Assembly: GCA_009842675.1 (NCBI GenBank)
Contig: VYEX01000064.1
Span: forward strand, 2,155-66,154
DNA from: Acidimicrobiia bacterium
Lineage (GTDB): Bacteria > Actinomycetota > Acidimicrobiia > Acidimicrobiales > Bin134
Direction of reading: 5' to 3'
DNA: 64,000 nt
Part shown: in pieces, positions 1-39,910 of the stretch
Numbering within the stretch: position 1 is the stretch's first letter
Layout of the letters: each line of letters begins with the position of its first letter
Program-made: the position numbers and the translations under genes
The notes under the pieces: model-generated
Database searches by the model: none
Told to the model about the DNA's origin: nothing
Seen by the model: only the letters and a program-made list of their open reading frames with translations

Positions 1-85
1 ACTCCTTGTCCCGTCTGCGATTGCCCTTGTCTTTCTTGTCTTATCAGCTCTTCAATCACTTGGAGTCGATCGGGTAGGTCTTGGC

Positions 86-361
86 ATGGCACCGAGACCA
101 GGACCTATCGCAGAAGAGAATGGCGCATCTCAAATTCGAGTCGCTGCACAAGAAGAGGTCAACGCGGCCCCATTTGCAAAATGGACGGCAGGAAAGAAGT
201 TGGATGAATCAAATGCTGCAAGACGTAACTTATCTCGAGCAATTGTTTGGCTCATATTCAATGGCGTAGTCGTTCTTGTAGCGATGTCCCTGTTGCAAAC
301 AGACGACTGCCAAGATCACCAAATCGTCGACAGCGTCGTATTGGAATATAGGGAGTGCTGA
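86..361 (+). CDS. hypothetical small membrane protein (one predicted TM helix)
   Basis: 91-aa ATG ORF in low-GC DNA with many A/T-ending codons. Single hydrophobic helix AIVWLIFNGVVVLVAMSLL. No family recognised. Confidence 0.25.
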   Translation: MAPRPGPIAEENGASQIRVAAQEEVNAAPFAKWTAGKKLDESNAARRNLSRAIVWLIFNGVVVLVAMSLLQTDDCQDHQIVDSVVLEYREC

Positions 362-831
362 AACACCCTACAGGGAGGCGAAATCAGTCATTGGCGTCGT
401 AGCTTCAGATGGCCCACGGTCAGCTAGTTGCAAGTGTCTTTGGCGTTACAGGCACCTAAGTCTGAAATCTCGCTAAGGGATGCCCGTGGCATGCGACAGG
501 TGCCTTCGGAAGTGCACGGCATGCTCGAAGTGCTGTAGCCGTGCTGGGCCCTAGCAATACAGAGACTCAGCAACCAGCGGTCTCTAGCGATGGTTTGCCC
601 AGGGCAGAAAATGCACAGCACGATGCTGGGACCAGCGCGTTCGCGTCGAGGGGATGCACCGGTTGACGAACTGCTGGCAGCGGTGCGCTAGCCGATACAG
701 CAGACGTCAACATCTGCCACCGGCGGCACCATATGGCCCCATAGAATTCGAACGGGCTCATTCCACCCAAACTCAAGCACCACATTTCCGCTGGGCAGAG
801 GGAACTCAGGAGTCCAGAGAAAGGACAGGCA

Positions 832-1206
832 ATGTTTGACATAGACCCACCTCGGAGGATCGAAGTTCTCGAAAGCTTCCCTCATCTCTGGTTTTGGGAG
901 ACCGACGACAGCACCCATACTGGTCCAATCGCCCACCATGCCATCCCGGTCCTGAAGCACGCTGCTGAGGATTGGCGAGAGCATGGATTCAAAGGCCGAC
1001 TCGAAAGATGGTTTGGCGACCTATTCGATCCCAGCGTTGCGGAGTCGGGGCTTGACGACGGTTACGCCGACACTCGTCTGATGGCAAGGGTTCAAACGGC
1101 GGGATTCGCATGGGCTGAGGGCAGGCGCAATCACCCCGCTATTGGCGAGTCGTTCGAGCGCTGGGTAGAAGCAGGAGAGACTTCTTCATACCTCCCAGAC
1201 TGCTGA
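832..1206 (+). CDS. hypothetical protein
   Basis: 124-aa ATG ORF preceded by AGGA about 6 nt upstream. Followed by a hairpin plus T-tract. No family recognised. Confidence 0.4.
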   Translation: MFDIDPPRRIEVLESFPHLWFWETDDSTHTGPIAHHAIPVLKHAAEDWREHGFKGRLERWFGDLFDPSVAESGLDDGYADTRLMARVQTAGFAWAEGRRNHPAIGESFERWVEAGETSSYLPDC

Positions 1207-1266
1207 ATGCCGGACGGTCTGTTTTTCATCCAGCAGTGCCCGAGTCCGGTCATTCTCAGACTGTGG

Positions 1267-1294
1267 AAAACGGCGCGCGTGCGTTTGTCTTTTT
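1267..1294 (+). terminator. candidate intrinsic terminator
   Basis: AAACG..CGTTT stem (extendable with one bulge) around a GC-rich loop, followed by TCTTTTT. Lies in the convergent gap between 832..1206(+) and 1318..1788(-). Confidence 0.35.
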
Positions 1295-1317
1295 GAGTGA
1301 AGAACTGTCAGAGCGAG

Positions 1318-1788
1318 TCAAAGTCGTTTGTTGTTTCCGCAGCGTTCTACTCGGGAAGGGACAAGGCGGCCTTGAAATCTCAGTGATCTGCGCAGTACAT
1401 CTACATTGGCGGTTCGGTTGGCTTTTTTGTTGGCAAACAGGGCGGCTAGTTTGGCGGAACTGAGTGGTGAGAACATCCCGTCACCGGTGATCTTGTCGAT
1501 TCCCGCTTGAACTTGCGGAATCGCACCCTTGTCCATGACATTCTTAATCTCAACCACCAGCCACTCGTAGCCGTTACGGACTTTTCGCAAGATGACCAAG
1601 TCTGGCTTCGGATCGCTTGGGCCGAATGCCGAGCACTTATCACACTCAATCATTAGGCGAAGTCCAAGGATCAATAGCCGGCAGCCCTTATGGGTCACTG
1701 CGATCGGCTGGTCGAAGTTTGCAGAGGCAGTCCGTACGAGGCACCCACAACCGGCATGCAGGTGGCGGATTGCTTGAGGATTGGTCAA
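1318..1788 (-). CDS. minimal PD-(D/E)xK nuclease-like protein, possibly with an N-terminal Cys cluster
   Basis: 156-aa ORF. TTG start overlaps the upstream ATPase stop (TTGA at 1785-1788). Motif E48 ... P62-D63 (KPDLVIL) ... E80-I-K82 (VVEIK) matches the PD-(D/E)xK signature. Cys at positions 14, 16, 36, 49 and 52. The start codon is uncertain. Confidence 0.5.
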   Translation of the reverse strand: MTNPQAIRHLHAGCGCLVRTASANFDQPIAVTHKGCRLLILGLRLMIECDKCSAFGPSDPKPDLVILRKVRNGYEWLVVEIKNVMDKGAIPQVQAGIDKITGDGMFSPLSSAKLAALFANKKANRTANVDVLRRSLRFQGRLVPSRVERCGNNKRL

Positions 1789-3281
1789 TCGAGCATGCCA
1801 ATCAAGCGGGCAGATTCTTCGGTGAGGTCTTCTGCCACCTTGACGAACTCATCTTCAGGGATGCCCCATTGGGGATCAACTTCGACACGTTCTACGGTCA
1901 CCATCTTTTTTGATTCGTTCCGCACGAAGCGGTGGACTGCGAGGTCGTTCACCGCCAGAAAATCGTCTTGGGTATAGGCGGGCGTCAGCTCATCTGATGC
2001 TGATGCCGAAGTTTCGTGGCGCAGGACACAGTTTGAGATTTCATTGAGGAGTATTGAGCTGTGTGTCGCGCAAACGACTTGAACCCCGCAATTTGCCAGG
2101 CGAACGAGTACTCGTCCCATCAACCTGATGGCCTCAGGGTGCAAGTGCGACTCTGGTTCATCAACGATCAACAAATCGCCGGGTGCGAGCAGTCTCTCTA
2201 CCCAGATGGCCAGCGGTGCCAGGTCCGCCACCATTGAAGAGGCATGGCGTATGGCAATGCTGTGGCCGTCCTGCTCGTATGCGAGCGTCGGGACGATTTC
2301 GCCATCTGGTTCTGGGCTGATCGTTCCTTCCATGAGCACCTTGAGCAGTGAAATGGCTGGCATGAGAGCATCTTGTTCTGGTGGTCGTTCCGAGCCGAAG
2401 AAGCTAAAGGGACGGAACCGGCGTCGGGAGCCGTGGCCGAGGACATCGGCTAGCGAAGAAATGAAGTCTAGGGCGACTCCATCTAGGGATGGATCTGCAA
2501 ACGAGGGCAGCCCATAACGTTCCTTTTCTAGTTGAATGCGCAGCTTTACGACATCTGTCCAGGCGTTCAACAGCCCGGAGCGACCTGCTGGAAGATAGTG
2601 AGTATTGCCGCCAAGACGTGCGTCTACAAGAAAACTGTGCCAGTAACCCTGCGTCACAATCCACGCAAGGTGACCGTAGAGGTTAGCTAGCTCTTCGCTG
2701 CCTGTGTCTTGGTCGAACAGTGTCGGCAGTGGGAAAAATTCATCGAATTCCGTCCAATCAATCTCCAGCTCACTGAGGATTCTGCCGACCGGTGCCGTTG
2801 TCCCTCCACTGCCGAACAAGCACACATCAGCACCACCTACCTCCGAACTCTTCACTTCAAAACGAAGACCTTCGCCGTTGCCCCAAGAGGTGATGCGCGT
2901 CAATTCATCTACGCCGAAAGTGGCCTTCAACCTAAGCGAAACTTCACGCCCGGCGTCTTCAAGTCCGCTTCGGAGCGCTTGGGCGACGTAGTCGTGTAGC
3001 TGGACTGGCAGCCCTTGTCTTGCAATTCCATCGTTGACAAGGGCATCGTGACGCTCCCGAGCGAAGGCCTCCAAAGCCGTTCCCTCGTCGTTGCTTAGCT
3101 CCTCGACAGGTCGGGGCATAACACTGCGCACTGCCTGTCGGCACGCATACAGGGCCTGCGCGACGTAGGTCTTGCCGGTGTTGTTCCGGCCGATGAATAC
3201 CGTCAAAGGCCGCAACGCAACTTCACCGTGCTCGACCGGCCCTAGGTGGTCCACGACAAGCTGTAGCTCTGTCTTGCTCAC
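1785..3281 (-). CDS. ABC/SMC-like ATPase of the AAA_15/AAA_21 type
   Basis: 498 aa, GTG start. Walker A GRNNTGKT (aa 31-38). A roughly 330-aa insert is followed by Walker B/D-loop LLIVDEPESHLHP (aa 370-382) and H-loop VCATHS. GC is lower than the backbone. Confidence 0.85.
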   Translation of the reverse strand: MSKTELQLVVDHLGPVEHGEVALRPLTVFIGRNNTGKTYVAQALYACRQAVRSVMPRPVEELSNDEGTALEAFARERHDALVNDGIARQGLPVQLHDYVAQALRSGLEDAGREVSLRLKATFGVDELTRITSWGNGEGLRFEVKSSEVGGADVCLFGSGGTTAPVGRILSELEIDWTEFDEFFPLPTLFDQDTGSEELANLYGHLAWIVTQGYWHSFLVDARLGGNTHYLPAGRSGLLNAWTDVVKLRIQLEKERYGLPSFADPSLDGVALDFISSLADVLGHGSRRRFRPFSFFGSERPPEQDALMPAISLLKVLMEGTISPEPDGEIVPTLAYEQDGHSIAIRHASSMVADLAPLAIWVERLLAPGDLLIVDEPESHLHPEAIRLMGRVLVRLANCGVQVVCATHSSILLNEISNCVLRHETSASASDELTPAYTQDDFLAVNDLAVHRFVRNESKKMVTVERVEVDPQWGIPEDEFVKVAEDLTEESARLIGMLD

Positions 3282-3392
3282 TGCTCGCAGGCTATCGTTG
3301 TCTACAACCAGGCACCACGATGGGAGCAGCGGGGGCGTTGGGAAACTGGTGCCGCGTTATTCGCTTTCCAGTACCTGACCCACTTATGCAAC

Positions 3393-3402
3393 TTTTGCAA
3401 AA
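3393..3402. promoter_or_regulatory. 10-bp perfect palindrome TTTTGCAAAA in a divergent intergenic region
   Basis: Lies in the 250-bp gap between the divergently transcribed ATPase (start 3281) and HsdR-like gene (start 3532). Flanked by a TGCAA direct repeat. Confidence 0.25.
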
Positions 3403-3531
3403 TGGGCACACTGCCTGTTTTGCCGGTATTTCGAGATGGCCTTACTACCTCCCTAGCGGAGTGCGCGGGAGCGGGTATCGACGGGGCATAAGGTGTACGG
3501 GATGTTTCGAAGGCAGGAAGGGTGATGGCTG

Positions 3532-6500
3532 ATGCCCGCTGACGAGGCGGCGTTCGAGGAGCACATCGCCTCGTGGTTGGTGGAGCATGGGGGGTATCGG
3601 CGAGCCAAAGTCGGCAATGCCATGGGAGAGCCGCGCGATTTCGATCCCGGCGCGGGGGTGGATACGGCTGATCTGTTCGAGTTCATTGGGGCGACTCAGG
3701 CGGATCACTGGGAGCGGTTGGTGGAATCGGCTTATGGGGGCGATCCGAACCAGGCGCAGTCGGGATTCGTGCAGCGATTGGCGTCGGAGCTTGACAAGCG
3801 GGGGACGGTGGACGTGCTGCGCCGAGGTGTGGTGGACCGGAATGTCAAGATCCACCTGGCGTACTTCAAGCCAGCCCAGGGTCGCACGCCGGAGCTTGCC
3901 CAGCGGTATGAGGCGAACGTGTTGTCGGTTACCCGGCAACTGCCGTTTGAGCCGGACACGTCCCGAACCGTTGACTTGGGACTGTTCGTCAACGGAATAC
4001 CGGTGGCCACCGCGGAGTTGAAGAACCCGCTCACCGGCCAGACCGTCGAGAACGCCATTGCCCAGTACCGAACCGACCGGCCCTACAACAACAGAACGCT
4101 GGGACGGTTGGGCATGGTGCATTTCGCGGTCGATCCCGCATCGGCGGCCATGACCACCCGTCTGGCTGGTACCCGAACCCGGTTTCTGCCGTTCAACCGG
4201 GGGCACAACTTGGGCGCTGGGAACCCACCCAATCCCGACGGGCACCGCACCGCGTACCTGTGGGAGCAGGTGTGGTCGAGAGATGCATGGATGGACATTC
4301 TGGATCGCTACATCCATGTAGAGAAGCCATCCCGTGGCTCAAAGGCCCGCCCAGAGGTGATATTTCCGAGGTTCCACCAATGGGATGCGGTGCGGCGTCT
4401 TGAGGCCGACGCCAAAGAGCGCGGCGCGGGTCGCAGTTACCTGGTTCAGCACTCGGCAGGGTCGGGCAAATCAAATTCGATCGCCTGGTTGGCGCACCGG
4501 CTATCAAAGCTGCACACCGACGACGACGCCCAAGTGTTCAACAAGGTGGTGGTGATCACTGACCGTGTCGTGCTCGACCGCCAGCTTCAGGACACGATCA
4601 GTCAGTTCGAACACGCCCTTGGTGTGGTGGAGCGAATCGACGAGAACTCGGCTCAGCTGGCAGCGGCTCTTGCTGGTGAACAGGCCCGAATCATCGTCAC
4701 TACGTTGCAGAAGTTCCCGTTCATCATCGACAAGATCGAGTCGCTGCCCGAGCGCAACTACGCCGTGATCGTAGATGAGGCCCACTCGTCGCAGACTGGC
4801 GAGGCGGCCAGGGAGTTGCGTCGGGTGCTGGGCTCGGCCGAGCCCGAGACCGACACGGATATGGAAGCGGGAGAGGTCGAGACGCTGCTCGCCGAGGCGG
4901 TCGCTGCCCGCGGCCGTCAGCCCAACCTGTCGTTCTTCGCCTTCACTGCTACCCCCAAGGGCCGCACCTTGGAACTGTTCGGTGAGGCTGGTGACGGCAG
5001 CAGGCACGAGCCCTTCCACCTGTACCCGATGCGCCAGGCCATAGAGGAGGGCTTCATCGAGGATGTGTTGGCTGGGTATCTGACCTACAACCAGTACTTC
5101 CATCTGGAGAAGGCGATCCTCGACGACCCTGAGTACGACACCGACAAGGCCCGCACTGCGCTTGCCAGATTCGTCACCCTACATCCGGACAATCTGGCGC
5201 AGAAGGCGGAGATCATCGTCGAGCACTTCCGCACCAAGATTGCTCGACAGATGGGTGGCGAGGCCAAGGCGATGGTGGTGTGCTCGTCGCGGCCCCATGC
5301 GGTGCGGATGTGGGAGGCGCTGCGAGGCTACGCCAACAACCTGGGATACGACCTCGGAGTGCTGGTGGCATTTTCGGGCGAGGTCGAAGGGATGACCGAA
5401 TCTAAGGCCAACGGTTTCCCAGAGTCCCAGACCGCGGAGCAGTTCGACACCGACGAGTGGCAGATCATGGTGGTGGCAGAGAAGTTCCAGACAGGTTTCG
5501 ACCAGCCGAAGCTGGTCGCCATGTACGTGGACAAGACCCTCACAGGCCTGGCTGCGGTGCAGACCCTTTCAAGGCTCAATCGCATCCATCCCGATAAGTC
5601 GGGCACTTTCGTGATTGACTTCGTGAACGACGCCCATCAGATCGGCGAGGAGTTCGCGGTGTACCACGGCAAGACCGTCGCACCGCCGACCGATCCCAAC
5701 CTGCTGTTCGACACTCGTCGTGAGCTCGATGGCTTCGGCGTCCTAGATGCCGGAGAGATGCAGCGGGCGGCGACGCTGCTCTTGGGGGAGGGCAACCACG
5801 CTCAAATTGACGCCGCCCTTCAGCCTGCCGCGGACCGGTTCAGGGCGTTGGACGATGACGACCAGGCTGCGTTCCGGGACTCGCTGGCTCGATTTGTGAG
5901 GGTGTACGGGTTCTTGTCGCTGGTCGTGCCATTCCGCAATCCTGAATTGGAGCGCGACTACCTGTTCTGCCGAGCTCTGGCCGCTCTCATTCGGGATCGA
6001 GACCCTGGTGAGAGCATCAACTTGGGCACGGAGGTGGAGCTCACCCATCTTCGGCACGAGATCGCGTTCGAGGGCTCGATCTCACTGCCTGACGGCGACG
6101 GTGAGGTGACCACCATCTACTCCGGTACCGGACCGCTCACCGACCCAGAGGAAGAACGGCTGTCCCAGATCATCGCCCGCCTCAACGAGCGCTTTGGTAC
6201 CGACTGGACCGAAGAGGATCGCTTGGTGTTTGAGGCCGCAGCCGGGGATCTCGTCTCGGACGCCGAGATCCAAAACCAGGCGGTGAATAACGACGAGGTC
6301 ACCTTCCGCACCCACGTTTTCCCGGCGCGCTACGAGAAAGCCCTGTTGTCTCGGATTGACCGCAATAGCGACCTCATCTACGCCTACCTCGACAGCAACG
6401 AGCTTCAGGCCGAGGTCATGGACATCTTTGCCGTCAATGTTCAGAGGCGCGCCGCCGTCGCGAGGCAGCGGACCTGCCCCATAGGCGATCTGCTTGGACC

Positions 6501-6987
6501 AGATCGAGAGTCGTTGTTCTTGGAGTACAAGTCCACCCTCCGCTGGGACATCCGAGAGCAGCGAAGGGGAGGCATTCCTGAGGACGCCGTAATCAAGACC
6601 ATTGCTGGCTTTGCCAACTCCGAGTACGGAGGGACCCTCCTGGTTGGTGTGGCCGACGACGGTTCGATCCACGGATTGGAAGACGACTACGCCACCTTCT
6701 CTCGACGCGGCGAGCGAGGTGACCAAGACCTGTGGGGCCAGCACCTTCAGAATCTGATTCGCAGCCGCCTAGGTGATGCGGTCCTCCCCCTCGTCTCCTG
6801 GGAGTTCCACACTGTCAACGGCAACCATCTAGCCCGAATCAGCATCGACCCATCAGGTTTCCCAGTCCTTGAGCGCAATGATGTAGACGAGATTTTCTGG
6901 CTCAGAACTCCAACTTCTACAATTCCGATTCTTGACTCCAATGAAAGAGATCAAATTCTGACACGTCGATGGGGAAGCCTTACGTGA
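3532..6987 (+). CDS. type I restriction R-subunit-like (HsdR-like) nuclease/helicase fused to a C-terminal AlbA_2 (Schlafen-like) domain
   Basis: 1151 aa, with AGGAAGG upstream of the ATG. Contains the N-terminal nuclease motif VD148LGLF...AE162LK164, helicase motif I HSAGSGKS (aa 307-314) and DEAH (aa 415-418). Also has a HsdR-type C-terminal helical region. The tail from about aa 990 (LFLEYKSTLRW...IAGFANSEYGGTLLVGVADDGSIHGL) is typical of AlbA_2. Confidence 0.85.
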   Translation: MPADEAAFEEHIASWLVEHGGYRRAKVGNAMGEPRDFDPGAGVDTADLFEFIGATQADHWERLVESAYGGDPNQAQSGFVQRLASELDKRGTVDVLRRGVVDRNVKIHLAYFKPAQGRTPELAQRYEANVLSVTRQLPFEPDTSRTVDLGLFVNGIPVATAELKNPLTGQTVENAIAQYRTDRPYNNRTLGRLGMVHFAVDPASAAMTTRLAGTRTRFLPFNRGHNLGAGNPPNPDGHRTAYLWEQVWSRDAWMDILDRYIHVEKPSRGSKARPEVIFPRFHQWDAVRRLEADAKERGAGRSYLVQHSAGSGKSNSIAWLAHRLSKLHTDDDAQVFNKVVVITDRVVLDRQLQDTISQFEHALGVVERIDENSAQLAAALAGEQARIIVTTLQKFPFIIDKIESLPERNYAVIVDEAHSSQTGEAARELRRVLGSAEPETDTDMEAGEVETLLAEAVAARGRQPNLSFFAFTATPKGRTLELFGEAGDGSRHEPFHLYPMRQAIEEGFIEDVLAGYLTYNQYFHLEKAILDDPEYDTDKARTALARFVTLHPDNLAQKAEIIVEHFRTKIARQMGGEAKAMVVCSSRPHAVRMWEALRGYANNLGYDLGVLVAFSGEVEGMTESKANGFPESQTAEQFDTDEWQIMVVAEKFQTGFDQPKLVAMYVDKTLTGLAAVQTLSRLNRIHPDKSGTFVIDFVNDAHQIGEEFAVYHGKTVAPPTDPNLLFDTRRELDGFGVLDAGEMQRAATLLLGEGNHAQIDAALQPAADRFRALDDDDQAAFRDSLARFVRVYGFLSLVVPFRNPELERDYLFCRALAALIRDRDPGESINLGTEVELTHLRHEIAFEGSISLPDGDGEVTTIYSGTGPLTDPEEERLSQIIARLNERFGTDWTEEDRLVFEAAAGDLVSDAEIQNQAVNNDEVTFRTHVFPARYEKALLSRIDRNSDLIYAYLDSNELQAEVMDIFAVNVQRRAAVARQRTCPIGDLLGPDRESLFLEYKSTLRWDIREQRRGGIPEDAVIKTIAGFANSEYGGTLLVGVADDGSIHGLEDDYATFSRRGERGDQDLWGQHLQNLIRSRLGDAVLPLVSWEFHTVNGNHLARISIDPSGFPVLERNDVDEIFWLRTPTSTIPILDSNERDQILTRRWGSLT

Positions 6988-7147
6988 TTTGGGGTTGAGA
7001 AAGCAATTGTAACTGTTATTGTTTTCGCAAAATTGGATGCGGCTTTTCACTCAGACGATAGTTTCGGTTGAAAGCTGTACAATCTGATGACAATACCGCA
7101 ATAATGTTGGAGATTGTTTTCCTACATTTGGCAAGGAGAAAAGGCAT

Positions 7148-7402
7148 ATGGGAGTAATATACACGCAGAATGGAGATCCTCTGGAGGTTAGGGGAAATAA
7201 AATATATAGAAAGGATGGCCGGCAAGTAGCCACACTTAAGGGCAACAAGGCCTTCGGAAGTGACGGCAAGTATATGGGCACAATTGTTGGCGATCGGCTT
7301 ATATTCAGGTCTTCAGATAAGTCCTATCGGGGATCAAGATTCAAACCAGCCATTGGCTCTAGGTTTTCGCGCAGAAAATCAACTCGCTCGCGTCTTCGAT
7401 AG
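7148..7402 (+). CDS. small repeat protein (four beta-hairpin-like repeats of about 15 aa, basic Ser/Arg tail), possibly 4-fold beta-flower-like
   Basis: 84-aa ORF in an AT-rich islet with AAGGAG upstream. Repeats IYTQNGDPLEVRGNK / IYRKDGRQVATLKGNK / AFGSDGKYMGTIVGDR / LIFRSSDKSYRGSRF. Confidence 0.35.
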   Translation: MGVIYTQNGDPLEVRGNKIYRKDGRQVATLKGNKAFGSDGKYMGTIVGDRLIFRSSDKSYRGSRFKPAIGSRFSRRKSTRSRLR

Positions 7403-7464
7403 AGGCTTGCACCAATCACAAATTAGGTTGGCGTGCTTGACTAGGAAACAGGTGCGTCAAGAAT

Positions 7465-38261: not shown

Positions 38262-38903
38262 GTGCCAGTTGTTAGGCAGGTTGTCGATCAGAAGTGCTTC
38301 AATCCCGAGGTCTCCTTGCCCTATGAGCTTCGGGTTCATGACTTCACATCGGCAATGCAGGATGTCTACGACTTCTTTTTCGACGTGAACTCGCACCTCA
38401 CAAACAAAGGCCTTGGACGCTTGGAGGACACACTGCGGAAGGCCAATCTGTCCGGGACGCTTTCGGACATGGTCACGGCAAGTCTGGCAAAGCACTCCAG
38501 GGTCCTCACCCAGAACCGCTATCACAATGGGCACCCTGATTTGATCGTCAAGGGCATATTCGCCAACGACTCAGTGAAAGCTGGAGATGAGGGTGTTGAG
38601 ATCAAGACGACGGTGAAGAAGGGCGGGGCAGTTGATACCCACGGCGCGCGAGATCAGTGGCTCTGCGTTTTCGTCTACGAAGCAGACAACGAGACCGAGC
38701 CAGCCATTGATCGCCAACCGCTGAGGTTCACCGAGGTGTACCTGTCGCATGTGCAGATTGACGACTTCAGAAGGAACGATCGAGGCGAACTGGGTACTCG
38801 CACGGCAACTCTCCACAAAGAGGGCATTCAGAAACTGCGCCGCAGCTGGGTTTATCTCGATATGGGATCAGTAGATGACACCGAGTCAGGACAAGGTTCG
38901 TAG
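38262..38903 (+). CDS. candidate type II restriction endonuclease (PD-(D/E)xK)
   Basis: 213 aa in a lower-GC islet, convergent with and overlapping the methyltransferase 3' end. GHPDLIVKG...DEGVEIKTT matches PD...ExK. The start (GTG) is uncertain. Confidence 0.55.
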   Translation: MPVVRQVVDQKCFNPEVSLPYELRVHDFTSAMQDVYDFFFDVNSHLTNKGLGRLEDTLRKANLSGTLSDMVTASLAKHSRVLTQNRYHNGHPDLIVKGIFANDSVKAGDEGVEIKTTVKKGGAVDTHGARDQWLCVFVYEADNETEPAIDRQPLRFTEVYLSHVQIDDFRRNDRGELGTRTATLHKEGIQKLRRSWVYLDMGSVDDTESGQGS

Positions 38904-39910
38904 TCCTTCAGCAACGGGATGGCAGCTTTGGCCAACTGCAAATACTCAGGATCAGACTCCACTCCAGTGCTTGCGTAGCCGATGTGCTCGGCTGCTGCGA
39001 TAGTAGAGCCGGATCCTGCGAACGGATCGAGAACAACTCCCTCTCCCATCGGCAAGATTGCCCGTACTGCTTGACGCAGAAAAGCCTGCGGCTTGAGGCT
39101 GGGGTGGGGAGCTAGTCGCCGTTCATCTGGCCGGGTCGGTGCAGATGCAATCACATCGCCAAACGGTCGATCGGATGAGATGCGCCTCAGTCCTCCAGTT
39201 CCCCACTTGCGCAAGTTGTCCTGCACCCGACCAGCCAACGGCTTGCGGAACAGTAGCCAAGGCTCCCATTTCGACCTTGGCATGACGGTCACGTCAGGGA
39301 ATTCCTCATGGGCGTTCTTTGGGCGATCACCGCCCCGCATCGTCATCACAAGCCTGACGACCTCTCCCCTCCTTTCGAAACCGGAACGGCACACCGCTAC
39401 AGCCACCCGGTGCGAAAGGAGGGGATTCGACGCAACAAGTACATGGGCGCCAGGCACCAGTGTAGGAAGGAGGGCGTCTGCCCAAGAGGAGAAGAAGCTG
39501 TCAAGAGCATCAAGATCTGATGCGGTCAGCGTGGTGAACCTGGGCACTGGTGATCGCTGGTGGCCGTCGAACGCAGGCGGGAGACGCCACACGCCTCCCC
39601 GGCCACGGCGGAGTTTTCGCTGCTGCTCTGGCTGATATTCCACAAGGCCGTAGGGGGGGTCGGTGACCACCCCATGAATCGAATTCGCGGGTTGGTCAGC
39701 CAGCCAGTCCAAGCAGTCGCCGTGAAACAACGAGGCTCGCCCGACCTGATAGGCGGGGGTCCATACTGGACTGAATGCTGCTTCAGCCGAGTTGATAGAC
39801 GCCACGCTGCACTCTCCTGAACTGCTTGGCTGGCCCTGTGTTGAGGTTGAGGTAGCTGCGAACGGACGACCCAGCGACTCTGGTTCCAAGTCGAGCTTCA
39901 ACTGCGGCAT
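38852..39910 (-). CDS. beta-class DNA methyltransferase (N6-adenine or N4-cytosine)
   Basis: Motif IV VVTDPPYG lies N-terminal to motif I VLDPFAGSGST. Alternative GTG start at 39805 with AGGAGA upstream. The long form overlaps the wHTH ORF by 128 nt. Confidence 0.85.
   Translation of the reverse strand: MPQLKLDLEPESLGRPFAATSTSTQGQPSSSGECSVASINSAEAAFSPVWTPAYQVGRASLFHGDCLDWLADQPANSIHGVVTDPPYGLVEYQPEQQRKLRRGRGGVWRLPPAFDGHQRSPVPRFTTLTASDLDALDSFFSSWADALLPTLVPGAHVLVASNPLLSHRVAVAVCRSGFERRGEVVRLVMTMRGGDRPKNAHEEFPDVTVMPRSKWEPWLLFRKPLAGRVQDNLRKWGTGGLRRISSDRPFGDVIASAPTRPDERRLAPHPSLKPQAFLRQAVRAILPMGEGVVLDPFAGSGSTIAAAEHIGYASTGVESDPEYLQLAKAAIPLLKDYEPCPDSVSSTDPISR

Follow-up and report, generated by a model that had tools for sequence, protein, structure and literature searches.

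Domain organization of the HsdR-Schlafen protein

The window analyzed here, a stretch of 64,000 nucleotides from an Acidimicrobiia bacterium (assembly GCA_009842675.1, contig VYEX01000064.1, positions 2,155 to 66,154), carries near its left edge the gene hsdR-SLFN, which encodes the R subunit (HsdR) of a type I restriction-modification (R-M) system with a Schlafen (AlbA_2) domain at the C-terminus. The open reading frame (ORF) is single and intact, starts with an ATG located 9-15 nt downstream of a Shine-Dalgarno-like motif (GGAAGGG) and encodes 1151 amino acids, in which the Pfam matches, every one above its gathering cut-off, represent four domains. The gene and its parts are as follows.

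3532..6987, plus strand: hsdR-SLFN, encoding a type I restriction R subunit that ends in a Schlafen/AlbA_2 domain (ORF, Pfam, NCBIfam, PADLOC REase_I)
3904..4170, plus strand: PD-(D/E)xK nuclease core, HSDR_N, residues 125-213, with D148, E162 and K164 (PF04313, E = 4e-13)
4366..5676, plus strand: superfamily 2 (SF2) translocase motor including type I restriction (T1R) domain 3, residues 279-715 (Pfam SWI2_SNF2, ResIII, DEAD and T1R_D3-like)
5677..6486, plus strand: all-helical HsdR C-terminal region, residues 716-985 (helices in the AlphaFold2 (AF2) model)
6487..6984, plus strand: prokaryotic Schlafen (AlbA_2) domain, residues 986-1151 (PF04326, motifs, fold, ratio of nonsynonymous to synonymous substitution rates (dN/dS) of 0.089)

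This layout, namely a PD-(D/E)xK module, SF2 motifs, a helical C-terminal region and a terminal AlbA_2 domain, had been proposed in an initial annotation made from the DNA letters, and is borne out by the Pfam matches, the conserved motifs and the fold comparison. Within the motor, SWI2_SNF2/ResIII/DEAD cover residues 279-513 and the T1R_D3-like match covers residues 641-697; the motor motifs, GSGKS (310-314), DEAH (415-418) and QTLSRLNR (motif VI, 677-684), are invariant or nearly so, and the set comprising D148, E162-L-K164, GSGKS and DEAH does not vary at all among 59 homologues. EcoR124I HsdR is the only significant sequence match of the protein in the PDB and is also the top PDB fold match of the full-length AF2 model (E = 3e-13, with an alignment of up to 831 columns), and the PADLOC scan returns REase_I models only (E = 1.4e-38). 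Judged by its sequence, the protein belongs to a divergent HsdR subfamily, and by analogy with EcoR124I, residues 716-985 are the presumed region of assembly with the methyltransferase. The Pfam, NCBIfam and PADLOC scans detect no methyltransferase (MTase), target recognition domain (TRD), SRA, PUA or DUF3427 domain in the protein. The full-length AF2 model is poor (pLDDT 61.6, pTM 0.32), so that the inter-domain geometry is unusable; the separate model of the C-terminal part is trusted.

All parts of the protein evolve under constraint. The dN/dS values, estimated per domain by the Nei-Gojobori method with eight close relatives, are 0.082 for the nuclease, 0.077 for the motor, 0.064 for the helical region and 0.089 for the Schlafen domain, with 0.29 for the last 22 residues; the purifying selection on the Schlafen domain is as strong as that on the rest of the protein. 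With 1151 codons open, the catalytic motifs kept and dN/dS of 0.06-0.09, the gene is intact and unlikely to be the inactive remnant that the initial annotation had named as a possible outcome.

The Schlafen domain

The Pfam family SLFN_AlbA_2 (PF04326) matches residues 993-1129 with a score of 46.7 bits, compared with the gathering cut-off of 25.3, so the AlbA_2 assignment of the C-terminal domain holds in a hidden Markov model scan. The Ex4ExK motif takes the form E993-SLFL-E998-Y-K1000 (nt 6508-6531), the Schlafen box A-G-F-A-N occupies residues 1025-1029, and GGTLL is also present. Among 59-105 homologues (down to ~61% identity), E993, E998 and K1000 are conserved in at least 90-98% of the sequences, and F1027, N1029 and D1042 never vary. 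When the domain alone is aligned, down to ~42% identity, K1000, F1027 and N1029 remain invariant, E998 and D1042 are conserved in at least 90%, and E993 is absent from the conserved list. In alignment with SLFN11, D1042 lies no more than one residue from the GVDD segment, presumably the carrier of the third catalytic acid, a correspondence that is only suggestive for D1042.

A phmmer search with the C-terminal domain against the PDB sequences yields insignificant matches only (SLFN11, E = 1.1), so that fold comparison is needed. The model of the last 177 amino acids is confident (pLDDT 87.6, pTM 0.86) and, in Foldseek, matches the bacterial AlbA_2 protein DIP2311, the AlbA_2 domain of SAMD9 and the N-domains of SLFN11, SLFN13, SLFN12, SLFN5 and SLFN14 (Foldseek values of 7.5e-7 for 3lmm, 3.8e-5 for 7ksp, 4e-5 for SLFN11, 7fex, and 8e-5 for SLFN13, 5yd0). 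On the combined showing of sequence and model, the C-terminal domain has a true AlbA_2/Schlafen fold.

Three recent reports (PMC13056530, PMC13462974, bioRxiv 10.64898/2026.05.29.728809) define the prokaryotic Schlafen (pSlfn) nucleases by their Ex4(E/D)xK motif, together with the (S)AFAN box and the Gly/hydrophobic core, and pSlfn proteins with this motif cut tRNA in phage defense, often after an oligomerization that pairs two single-lobed domains. Because the domain described here keeps the Ex4ExK motif, the AFAN box and the invariant Asp, evolves with a dN/dS of 0.09 and is modeled with an SLFN11/13-like fold, its probable role is that of an RNase effector and not of a passive sensor. Its earlier description as a ‘nucleic-acid-sensing domain' is probably too weak, given the conservation of the tRNase Ex4ExK motif.

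Outside the family, the nearest relatives of the domain are located at the C-termini of other HsdR clades (P0375, P0401), GmrSD_N-EVE proteins, an Eco57I-type IIG enzyme and an AAA_22 ATPase. Some variation on the fusion itself is also seen. In two genomes, a truncated HsdR is accompanied by a separate, ~140-190-aa AlbA_2-only ORF (P0082 with P0133 and P0046 with P0208, matched through contigs of identical length); these candidate split pairs may be true splits or frameshift errors. A 658-aa fragment (P0377) combines T1R_D3, SLFN_AlbA_2 and Peptidase_S24 (LexA-like autoprotease) in one chain, which would add a self-cleaving module to the C-terminus of an HsdR-Schlafen fusion.

Linkage of the family to hsdM and hsdS

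The HsdR-Schlafen fusion is a conserved family with over 100 clusters of full-length homologues, mostly from sponge-associated Acidimicrobiia. The best 120 homologues (61-93% identity) all belong to this HsdR family, and 105 of these are 1130-1200 aa long; eight short ones have no PF04326 match or end before the domain, and all the others carry PF04326. The fusion is kept down to 54% identity and across phyla, and the junction at the 3' end of hsdR (see below) is no evidence that AlbA_2 was fused recently.

The loci of the family were scanned with one genome per species, which gave 48 loci, nearly all from metagenome-assembled genomes (MAGs) of Acidimicrobiia, several of them with sponge-symbiont names (Candidatus Poriferisocius, Spongiisocius). 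For 40 of the loci, the upstream flank is available over its full 10 kb. A full hsdM plus hsdS pair (hsdMS) lies upstream of hsdR on the same strand in 22 of the 40, with the end of hsdM 1.2-8.6 kb from the hsdR start, and four more have hsdS or hsdM at the edge of the flank. The remaining 14 have neither gene within 10 kb upstream. Two of these ‘empty' loci were followed further out, and both contain hsdMS, with hsdM in the same orientation as hsdR at 19.4 kb upstream in L012 (OZ244898) and at 25.4 kb in L018 (OZ242337); RES/HEPN, TIR, DUF3644, HicAB and AAA-ATPase genes are located between hsdM and hsdR in these two loci. Overall, hsdMS is found within or at the edge of the 10-kb flank in 26 of the 40 loci, and beyond it in both of those followed, which speaks against a fusion that typically occurs without M and S partners.

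The linkage takes several forms. Compact or nearly compact hsdM-hsdS-hsdR operons are found in L025, L045, L049 and L023; in L026, a shorter locus, hsdMS lies directly downstream; and the order hsdM-hsdS-cargo-hsdR is found in L002, L003, L057 and L058. In L002 and L003, an HsdM of 600-670 aa (HsdM_N and N6_Mtase) and an HsdS (Methylase_S) are encoded upstream on the same strand, with toxin-antitoxin or defense genes between hsdS and hsdR. The same linkage is seen in no fewer than five unrelated chromosomal settings (ilv; topA with dnaX; paaX; gyrAB; and the HTTM cluster that is also present in the window), and the divergence of HsdM parallels that of HsdR (Spearman coefficient of 0.89 over 153 pairs, for raw values without phylogenetic correction). 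The family is best described as ancestrally a compact hsdM-hsdS-hsdR operon that was split in many genomes by 0-25 kb of hypervariable defense and toxin-antitoxin cargo.

Two further features of these loci can be mentioned. The HsdM linked to the family is unusually long, at 672 aa (L004, 1844-3844, and homologues); in the L004 protein, the N6_Mtase match ends near residue 453, which leaves ~200 C-terminal residues without a Pfam match. A conserved coding segment of ~55 aa lies directly upstream of hsdR in L011, L013, L019, L039, L043 and L044, is located upstream of hsdM instead in L004 (1081-1266) and is absent from the window; it may correspond to the 60-aa gene that precedes hsdR in L002 and could encode a small regulator.

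The orthologous locus and the left edge of the window

The closest relative in the databases, at 93% identity, comes from L058, where the gene order is PNPOx-hsdM-hsdS-six cargo genes-hsdR-183-aa ORF, with hsdMS 6.3-9.5 kb upstream of hsdR. The right flank of hsdR in the window is the same as in L058 and in the same order: ORFs of 183 and 375 aa, followed by the genes for HTTM, an Rv2466c-like protein, a luciferase-like protein, L28, L33 and HD. This flank is also syntenic in L004, L041, L029 and L038, all with hsdMS 6-10 kb upstream. By synteny, the window appears to hold the right-hand end of an L058-type island with a different cargo.

The upstream view is short. The window offers only 3.5 kb upstream of hsdR, and a tblastn search of the 64 kb with the family HsdM and a panel of 24 HsdS proteins finds nothing. 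The exact protein is present on three assemblies, all of which break 3.5-5.65 kb upstream of hsdR; the longest of these contigs (L001/L054) adds 2.1 kb to the window, with three ORFs that have no informative Pfam match. Leftward extension through the exact HsdR and the leftmost complete ORF (691-984, minus strand) reveals no contig that reaches more than 5.65 kb upstream. Three HsdM clusters that are 91-92% identical to the HsdM of L004 provide further examples of the island, none of them from sample ERZ23491927, and one locus found in this way (L056) breaks right after hsdM. Contig breaks at 3.5-5.65 kb are what would be expected in a strain-variable cargo or hsdS region. It is quite probable that hsdMS is present upstream in this genome too, most likely at more than 5.6 kb from hsdR and further to the left than the window or any available contig reaches.

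The initial annotation had described the gene as an orphan with no HsdM or HsdS nearby. The absence is real for the 64-kb window, whereas the word ‘orphan' is not warranted by the 3.5 kb in view, and that reading appears to be largely a window-edge artifact; in general, orphan calls next to a window edge are unsafe. The further claims that the protein is stand-alone and modification-independent are not supported by the comparison with the orthologous L058 locus, which has hsdMS, and with the family, in which the same fusion is normally the R gene of an hsdM-hsdS...hsdR locus. The type II-like methyltransferase that had been noted ~32 kb away is indeed there (PF01555, N6_N4_Mtase, 38852-39910, minus strand), and no other methyltransferase is found among the ORFs scanned at 34.8-40.7 kb of the window.

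The island, its cargo and the 3' end of hsdR

Positions 1-7450 of the window form a low-GC island (GC content of 0.54-0.63, compared with ~0.66), with the cargo (0.54-0.56) below hsdR. In these islands, hsdMS and hsdR might act as homology arms on either side of a hypervariable cassette of defense cargo and allow its exchange. The features that adjoin hsdR in the window are as follows.

1318..3281, minus strand: AAA_15/AAA_21 ATPase of 498 aa and an overlapping ORF of 111-156 aa (Pfam, PADLOC)
3282..3531, no strand: intergenic region from which the cargo ATPase operon (minus strand) and hsdR (plus strand) diverge (sequence, Shine-Dalgarno-like motif)
6890..7445, no strand: low-GC segment made up of the last ~95 nt of hsdR and an AT-rich insertion of ~470 bp, the right end of the island (comparison with L058, GC profile)

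The intergenic region lies between divergently transcribed units and would have to hold a promoter of hsdR's own; a sigma-70 scan of 3282-3531 detects no consensus promoter. A 70-aa ORF that overlaps the hsdR ATG (3320-3532) lies within this divergent promoter region, has no family match and is judged spurious. The 498-aa ATPase is best matched by the PADLOC model PD-T4-4_A (E = 2.7e-39), and the small overlapping ORF has no match, including among the PADLOC models. L014, L018, L028 and L043 have the same pair (46-50% identity) among the cargo genes upstream of hsdR; in L018, it lies between hsdMS and hsdR. The pair is probably an independent two-gene defense module; the PD-T4-4_A-like ATPase was considered as a partner of HsdR and rejected, given its variable distance (1.8-8 kb) inside the cargo of the relatives.

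The 3' end of hsdR is a real junction, a mosaic of 3'-end alleles with an insertion downstream. The AT-rich turn that had been noted in the last ~130 nt is confirmed: the gene body has a GC content of 0.62, and the final 135 nt one of 0.45. Over the last 150 nt, the gene also becomes less similar to seven close relatives, with nucleotide identities of 0.64-0.74 instead of 0.83-0.93. Compared with L058, the identity drops at ~6890, ~95 nt before the stop codon, from ~0.9 to 0.67 (6892-6951), and returns to ~0.9 within the 183-aa gene; the intervening ~470 bp (~6975-7445, GC content of 0.37-0.48) are absent from L058, where the 183-aa gene directly follows hsdR. The insertion contains an 84-aa ORF (7148-7402, plus strand) with a strong AAGGAG ribosome-binding site; the ORF matches the 4-fold beta-flower family below threshold (PF21784, E = 1e-3) and has no homologue in any locus retrieved. 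The low-GC insertion either arrived with a homologous hsdR 3' end of its own or replaced the existing one. The encoded HsdR tail stays homologous to all relatives (FWLRTPTST...RRW), so that the junction is not the point of AlbA_2 fusion; the recombination junction hinted at near the 3' end in the initial annotation does exist.

Several observations on the islands stand on their own. Relics of hsdR are located beside or inside islands (L018, 3158-3529; L039, 16006-16338; L024, 8112-8309; L042, 10001-10255), some covering the AlbA_2-coding 3' part (residues 965-1085 and 1038-1148), others the 5' part (residues 2-90), which suggests footprints of recombination at the conserved ends of hsdR as a regular route of cargo exchange. 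A four-gene minus-strand cargo operon is common to L057 (4177-8385), L058 (3740-7948) and L036 (1137-5357) and encodes proteins of ~260-295 aa, ~386 aa (a BrxC/AAA_22/NACHT-like ATPase), 341 aa and ~416 aa (N6_N4 methyltransferase-like), respectively; it looks like an uncharacterized, methyltransferase-containing defense module. Far to the right in the window, positions 38262-39910 form another low-GC patch (0.58-0.60 compared with ~0.66), in which a 213-aa ORF without a Pfam match (38262-38903, plus strand) converges on or overlaps the N6_N4 methyltransferase gene; together, the two may constitute a small R-M pair of type II.

Comparison with known systems

With EcoR124I and EcoKI HsdR, the protein shares the N-terminal PD-(D/E)xK nuclease, the SF2 motor with GSGKS and DEAH, T1R domain 3 and the helical C-terminal region, and its family shares the linkage to hsdM (HsdM_N and N6_Mtase) and hsdS (Methylase_S). 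It differs from classical HsdR in the extra ~165-aa C-terminal Schlafen/AlbA_2 domain and in scoring below the TIGR00348 cut-off, and the family differs from the classical systems in the cargo, up to 25 kb long, that often stands between hsdMS and hsdR.

Single-chain restriction enzymes such as the type IV enzyme SauUSI and the type ISP enzymes LlaGI and LlaBIII also combine a nuclease, an SF2 helicase and an additional C-terminal domain, and so resemble the stand-alone model of the initial annotation. These enzymes, however, have a target-recognition domain of their own (SRA-like DUF3427, or MTase-TRD); no such domain is present here, and hsdM and hsdS are separate genes linked to the family.

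The GmrSD_N(DUF262)-EVE-AlbA_2 and Eco57I-type IIG-AlbA_2 proteins (P0427, P0481, P0395, P0372) are alike in that AlbA_2 is C-terminal on a DNA-restriction protein; the DNA-targeting partner is a different one, and none is a type I motor. DUF262-pSlfn is an architecture named in PMC13056530.

The pSlfn, Cash and SLFN-pAgo proteins share with the present one PF04326, the Ex4(E/D)xK motif, the AFAN box, the single-lobed organization, the fusion to a larger protein and the location in defense islands. A bilobal Schlafen dimer has been described for SLFN-pAgo. In the characterized proteins, the domain is mostly N-terminal, with Ig-like, Csx15, GHKL-ATPase/pAgo or DUF262 partners, whereas here it is C-terminal and the partner is a complete HsdR. 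According to the published surveys, 55 pSlfn architectures are catalogued, more than half of the defense-linked Schlafen homologues accompany R-M systems and other nucleases, and fusions of Schlafen to R-M methyltransferases and HsdS are mentioned; the main texts of these surveys, as distinct from their architecture tables, contain no description of an HsdR-Schlafen fusion that could be found.

The functional parallel would be PrrC, an anticodon nuclease for tRNALys that resides inside the type IC EcoprrI locus and is unleashed by the T4 inhibitor Stp (PMC12707154). Like the proposed function of the Schlafen domain, PrrC/EcoprrI and RloC involve a tRNA-targeting nuclease as a fail-safe of a type I enzyme (PMC12707154); unlike it, PrrC and RloC are separate ABC-ATPase/HEPN-type proteins that are neither Schlafen nor fused to HsdR, with no homology, and no domain of the PrrC/RloC type (ABC-ATPase N-domain and C-terminal anticodon nuclease) is found by the Pfam, NCBIfam and PADLOC scans of the protein.

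Proposed function and alternative explanations

The interpretation favored here, with moderate confidence, is that hsdR-SLFN encodes the R subunit of a canonical three-gene type I R-M system and carries a latent Schlafen RNase as a second effector. This interpretation is supported by the linkage of the family to hsdMS, the orthology of the right flank, the intact R subunit and the conserved catalytic motif of the Schlafen domain. The enzyme would be an ordinary type I R2M2S1 complex that acts on unmodified DNA. The Schlafen domain would be a metal-dependent RNase, most likely a tRNase by analogy with pSlfn, Cash and SLFN-pAgo, and as the second effector of the restriction complex would stay silent while HsdR is idle. 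It might become active once two single-lobed Schlafen domains pair up, with the pairing possibly triggered by HsdR motors that engage, converge or collide on unmodified DNA or, alternatively, by an anti-restriction protein that jams the complex. The outcome would be a halt of translation that backs up DNA cleavage, an in-cis analogue of PrrC/EcoprrI. The full scheme, with two nucleolytic outputs, an HsdR-borne tRNase licensed by domain pairing, and hsdMS and hsdR arms framing the cargo cassette, is put forward only tentatively.

Several points weigh against this interpretation. The RNase activity, the substrate and the trigger of the Schlafen domain are all inferred from analogy. The NCBIfam model for hsdR (TIGR00348) covers residues 126-715 with 181.5 bits, below its trusted cut-off of 284.55. 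For this genome, hsdM and hsdS are not seen within the 5.65 kb upstream that the longest contig covers, and the 14 ‘empty' loci include 12, beyond the two followed further out, in which the 10-kb flank shows no hsdMS. One of the loci without hsdMS within 10 kb, L036, looks rearranged: the PNPOx gene, usually on the left flank, lies downstream of hsdR, and its cargo operon is that of L057/L058, which abuts hsdS in L057 and has no hsdS detected beside it in L036. This locus may really be without hsdMS, and because of its arrangement, hsdMS-less derivatives may exist. The other two points, the resemblance of the C-terminal model to a DNA-binding protein and an R allele that does without the domain, bear on the role of AlbA_2 and lead to the main alternative.

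In this alternative, the protein is a type I R subunit in which AlbA_2 is a non-catalytic, nucleic-acid-binding or regulatory module that might act as a DNA clamp, in sensing of single-stranded DNA or RNA, in assembly or in restriction alleviation. AlbA_2 domains can act as plain DNA or RNA binders, and the best match of the C-terminal model by TM-score is the DNA-binding domain of SAMD9 on DNA (7ksp, TMq 0.64). Several mammalian SLFNs without catalytic residues act without nuclease activity (PMC13462974). A domain-less R allele in L034 (10001-12928), which ends at residue 978, still stands behind hsdMS; this continued linkage indicates that AlbA_2 is dispensable for restriction as such and fits an accessory modulator. 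However, conservation of Ex4ExK and D1042 down to ~61% identity is unexpected if only binding mattered, and the characterized prokaryotic Schlafen domains with the Ex4ExK motif are tRNases, so that a purely non-catalytic role is considered doubtful.

Much less is to be said for a stand-alone, modification-independent translocating nuclease in which AlbA_2 senses foreign nucleic acids and no methyltransferase or specificity subunit is needed. The missing hsdM and hsdS in the window and on the longest contig, the upstream intergenic region of hsdR with its divergent neighbor, and the 12 related loci without hsdMS within 10 kb, among them the rearranged-looking L036, are all compatible with such an enzyme, and nuclease-helicase restriction enzymes on a single polypeptide, SauUSI and type ISP, exist. 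Nevertheless, the upstream view is short, the orthologous locus of the nearest relative has hsdMS, the linkage holds for most of the surveyed loci and for both of the ‘empty' ones that were followed, the family contains compact hsdM-hsdS-hsdR operons, and a modification-independent translocating nuclease could not spare the host chromosome; this model is unlikely. The least probable explanation, a decaying type I remnant left after the loss of hsdMS and without current function, could draw on the lack of visible hsdMS, the hsdR relics in related islands and the frameshifted copies in some MAGs (L021, L038, L044, L046, L047, L051), but is highly improbable given the intact 1151-codon ORF with all its catalytic motifs and the low dN/dS between the window and its relatives in all four domains, and many of the frameshifts, in long-read MAGs, may be assembly errors.

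Implications

What is left of interest is a widespread, uncharacterized type I family with a catalytically intact Schlafen domain on the R subunit, bordering a variable defense cassette. Prokaryotic Schlafen nucleases are often R-M-associated according to the recent papers, with an activation in this context that lacks an explanation. The compact natural operons (L025, L045), with the domain-less allele of L034 as a control, are useful test material, and the hsdMS...hsdR frame is a marker for mining defense genes in sponge-associated Acidimicrobiia. If the Schlafen tRNase is active, the family would represent the first known type I enzyme with an abortive-infection effector inside the R subunit and, if so, would tie classical R-M to the newly recognized prokaryotic Schlafen nucleases.

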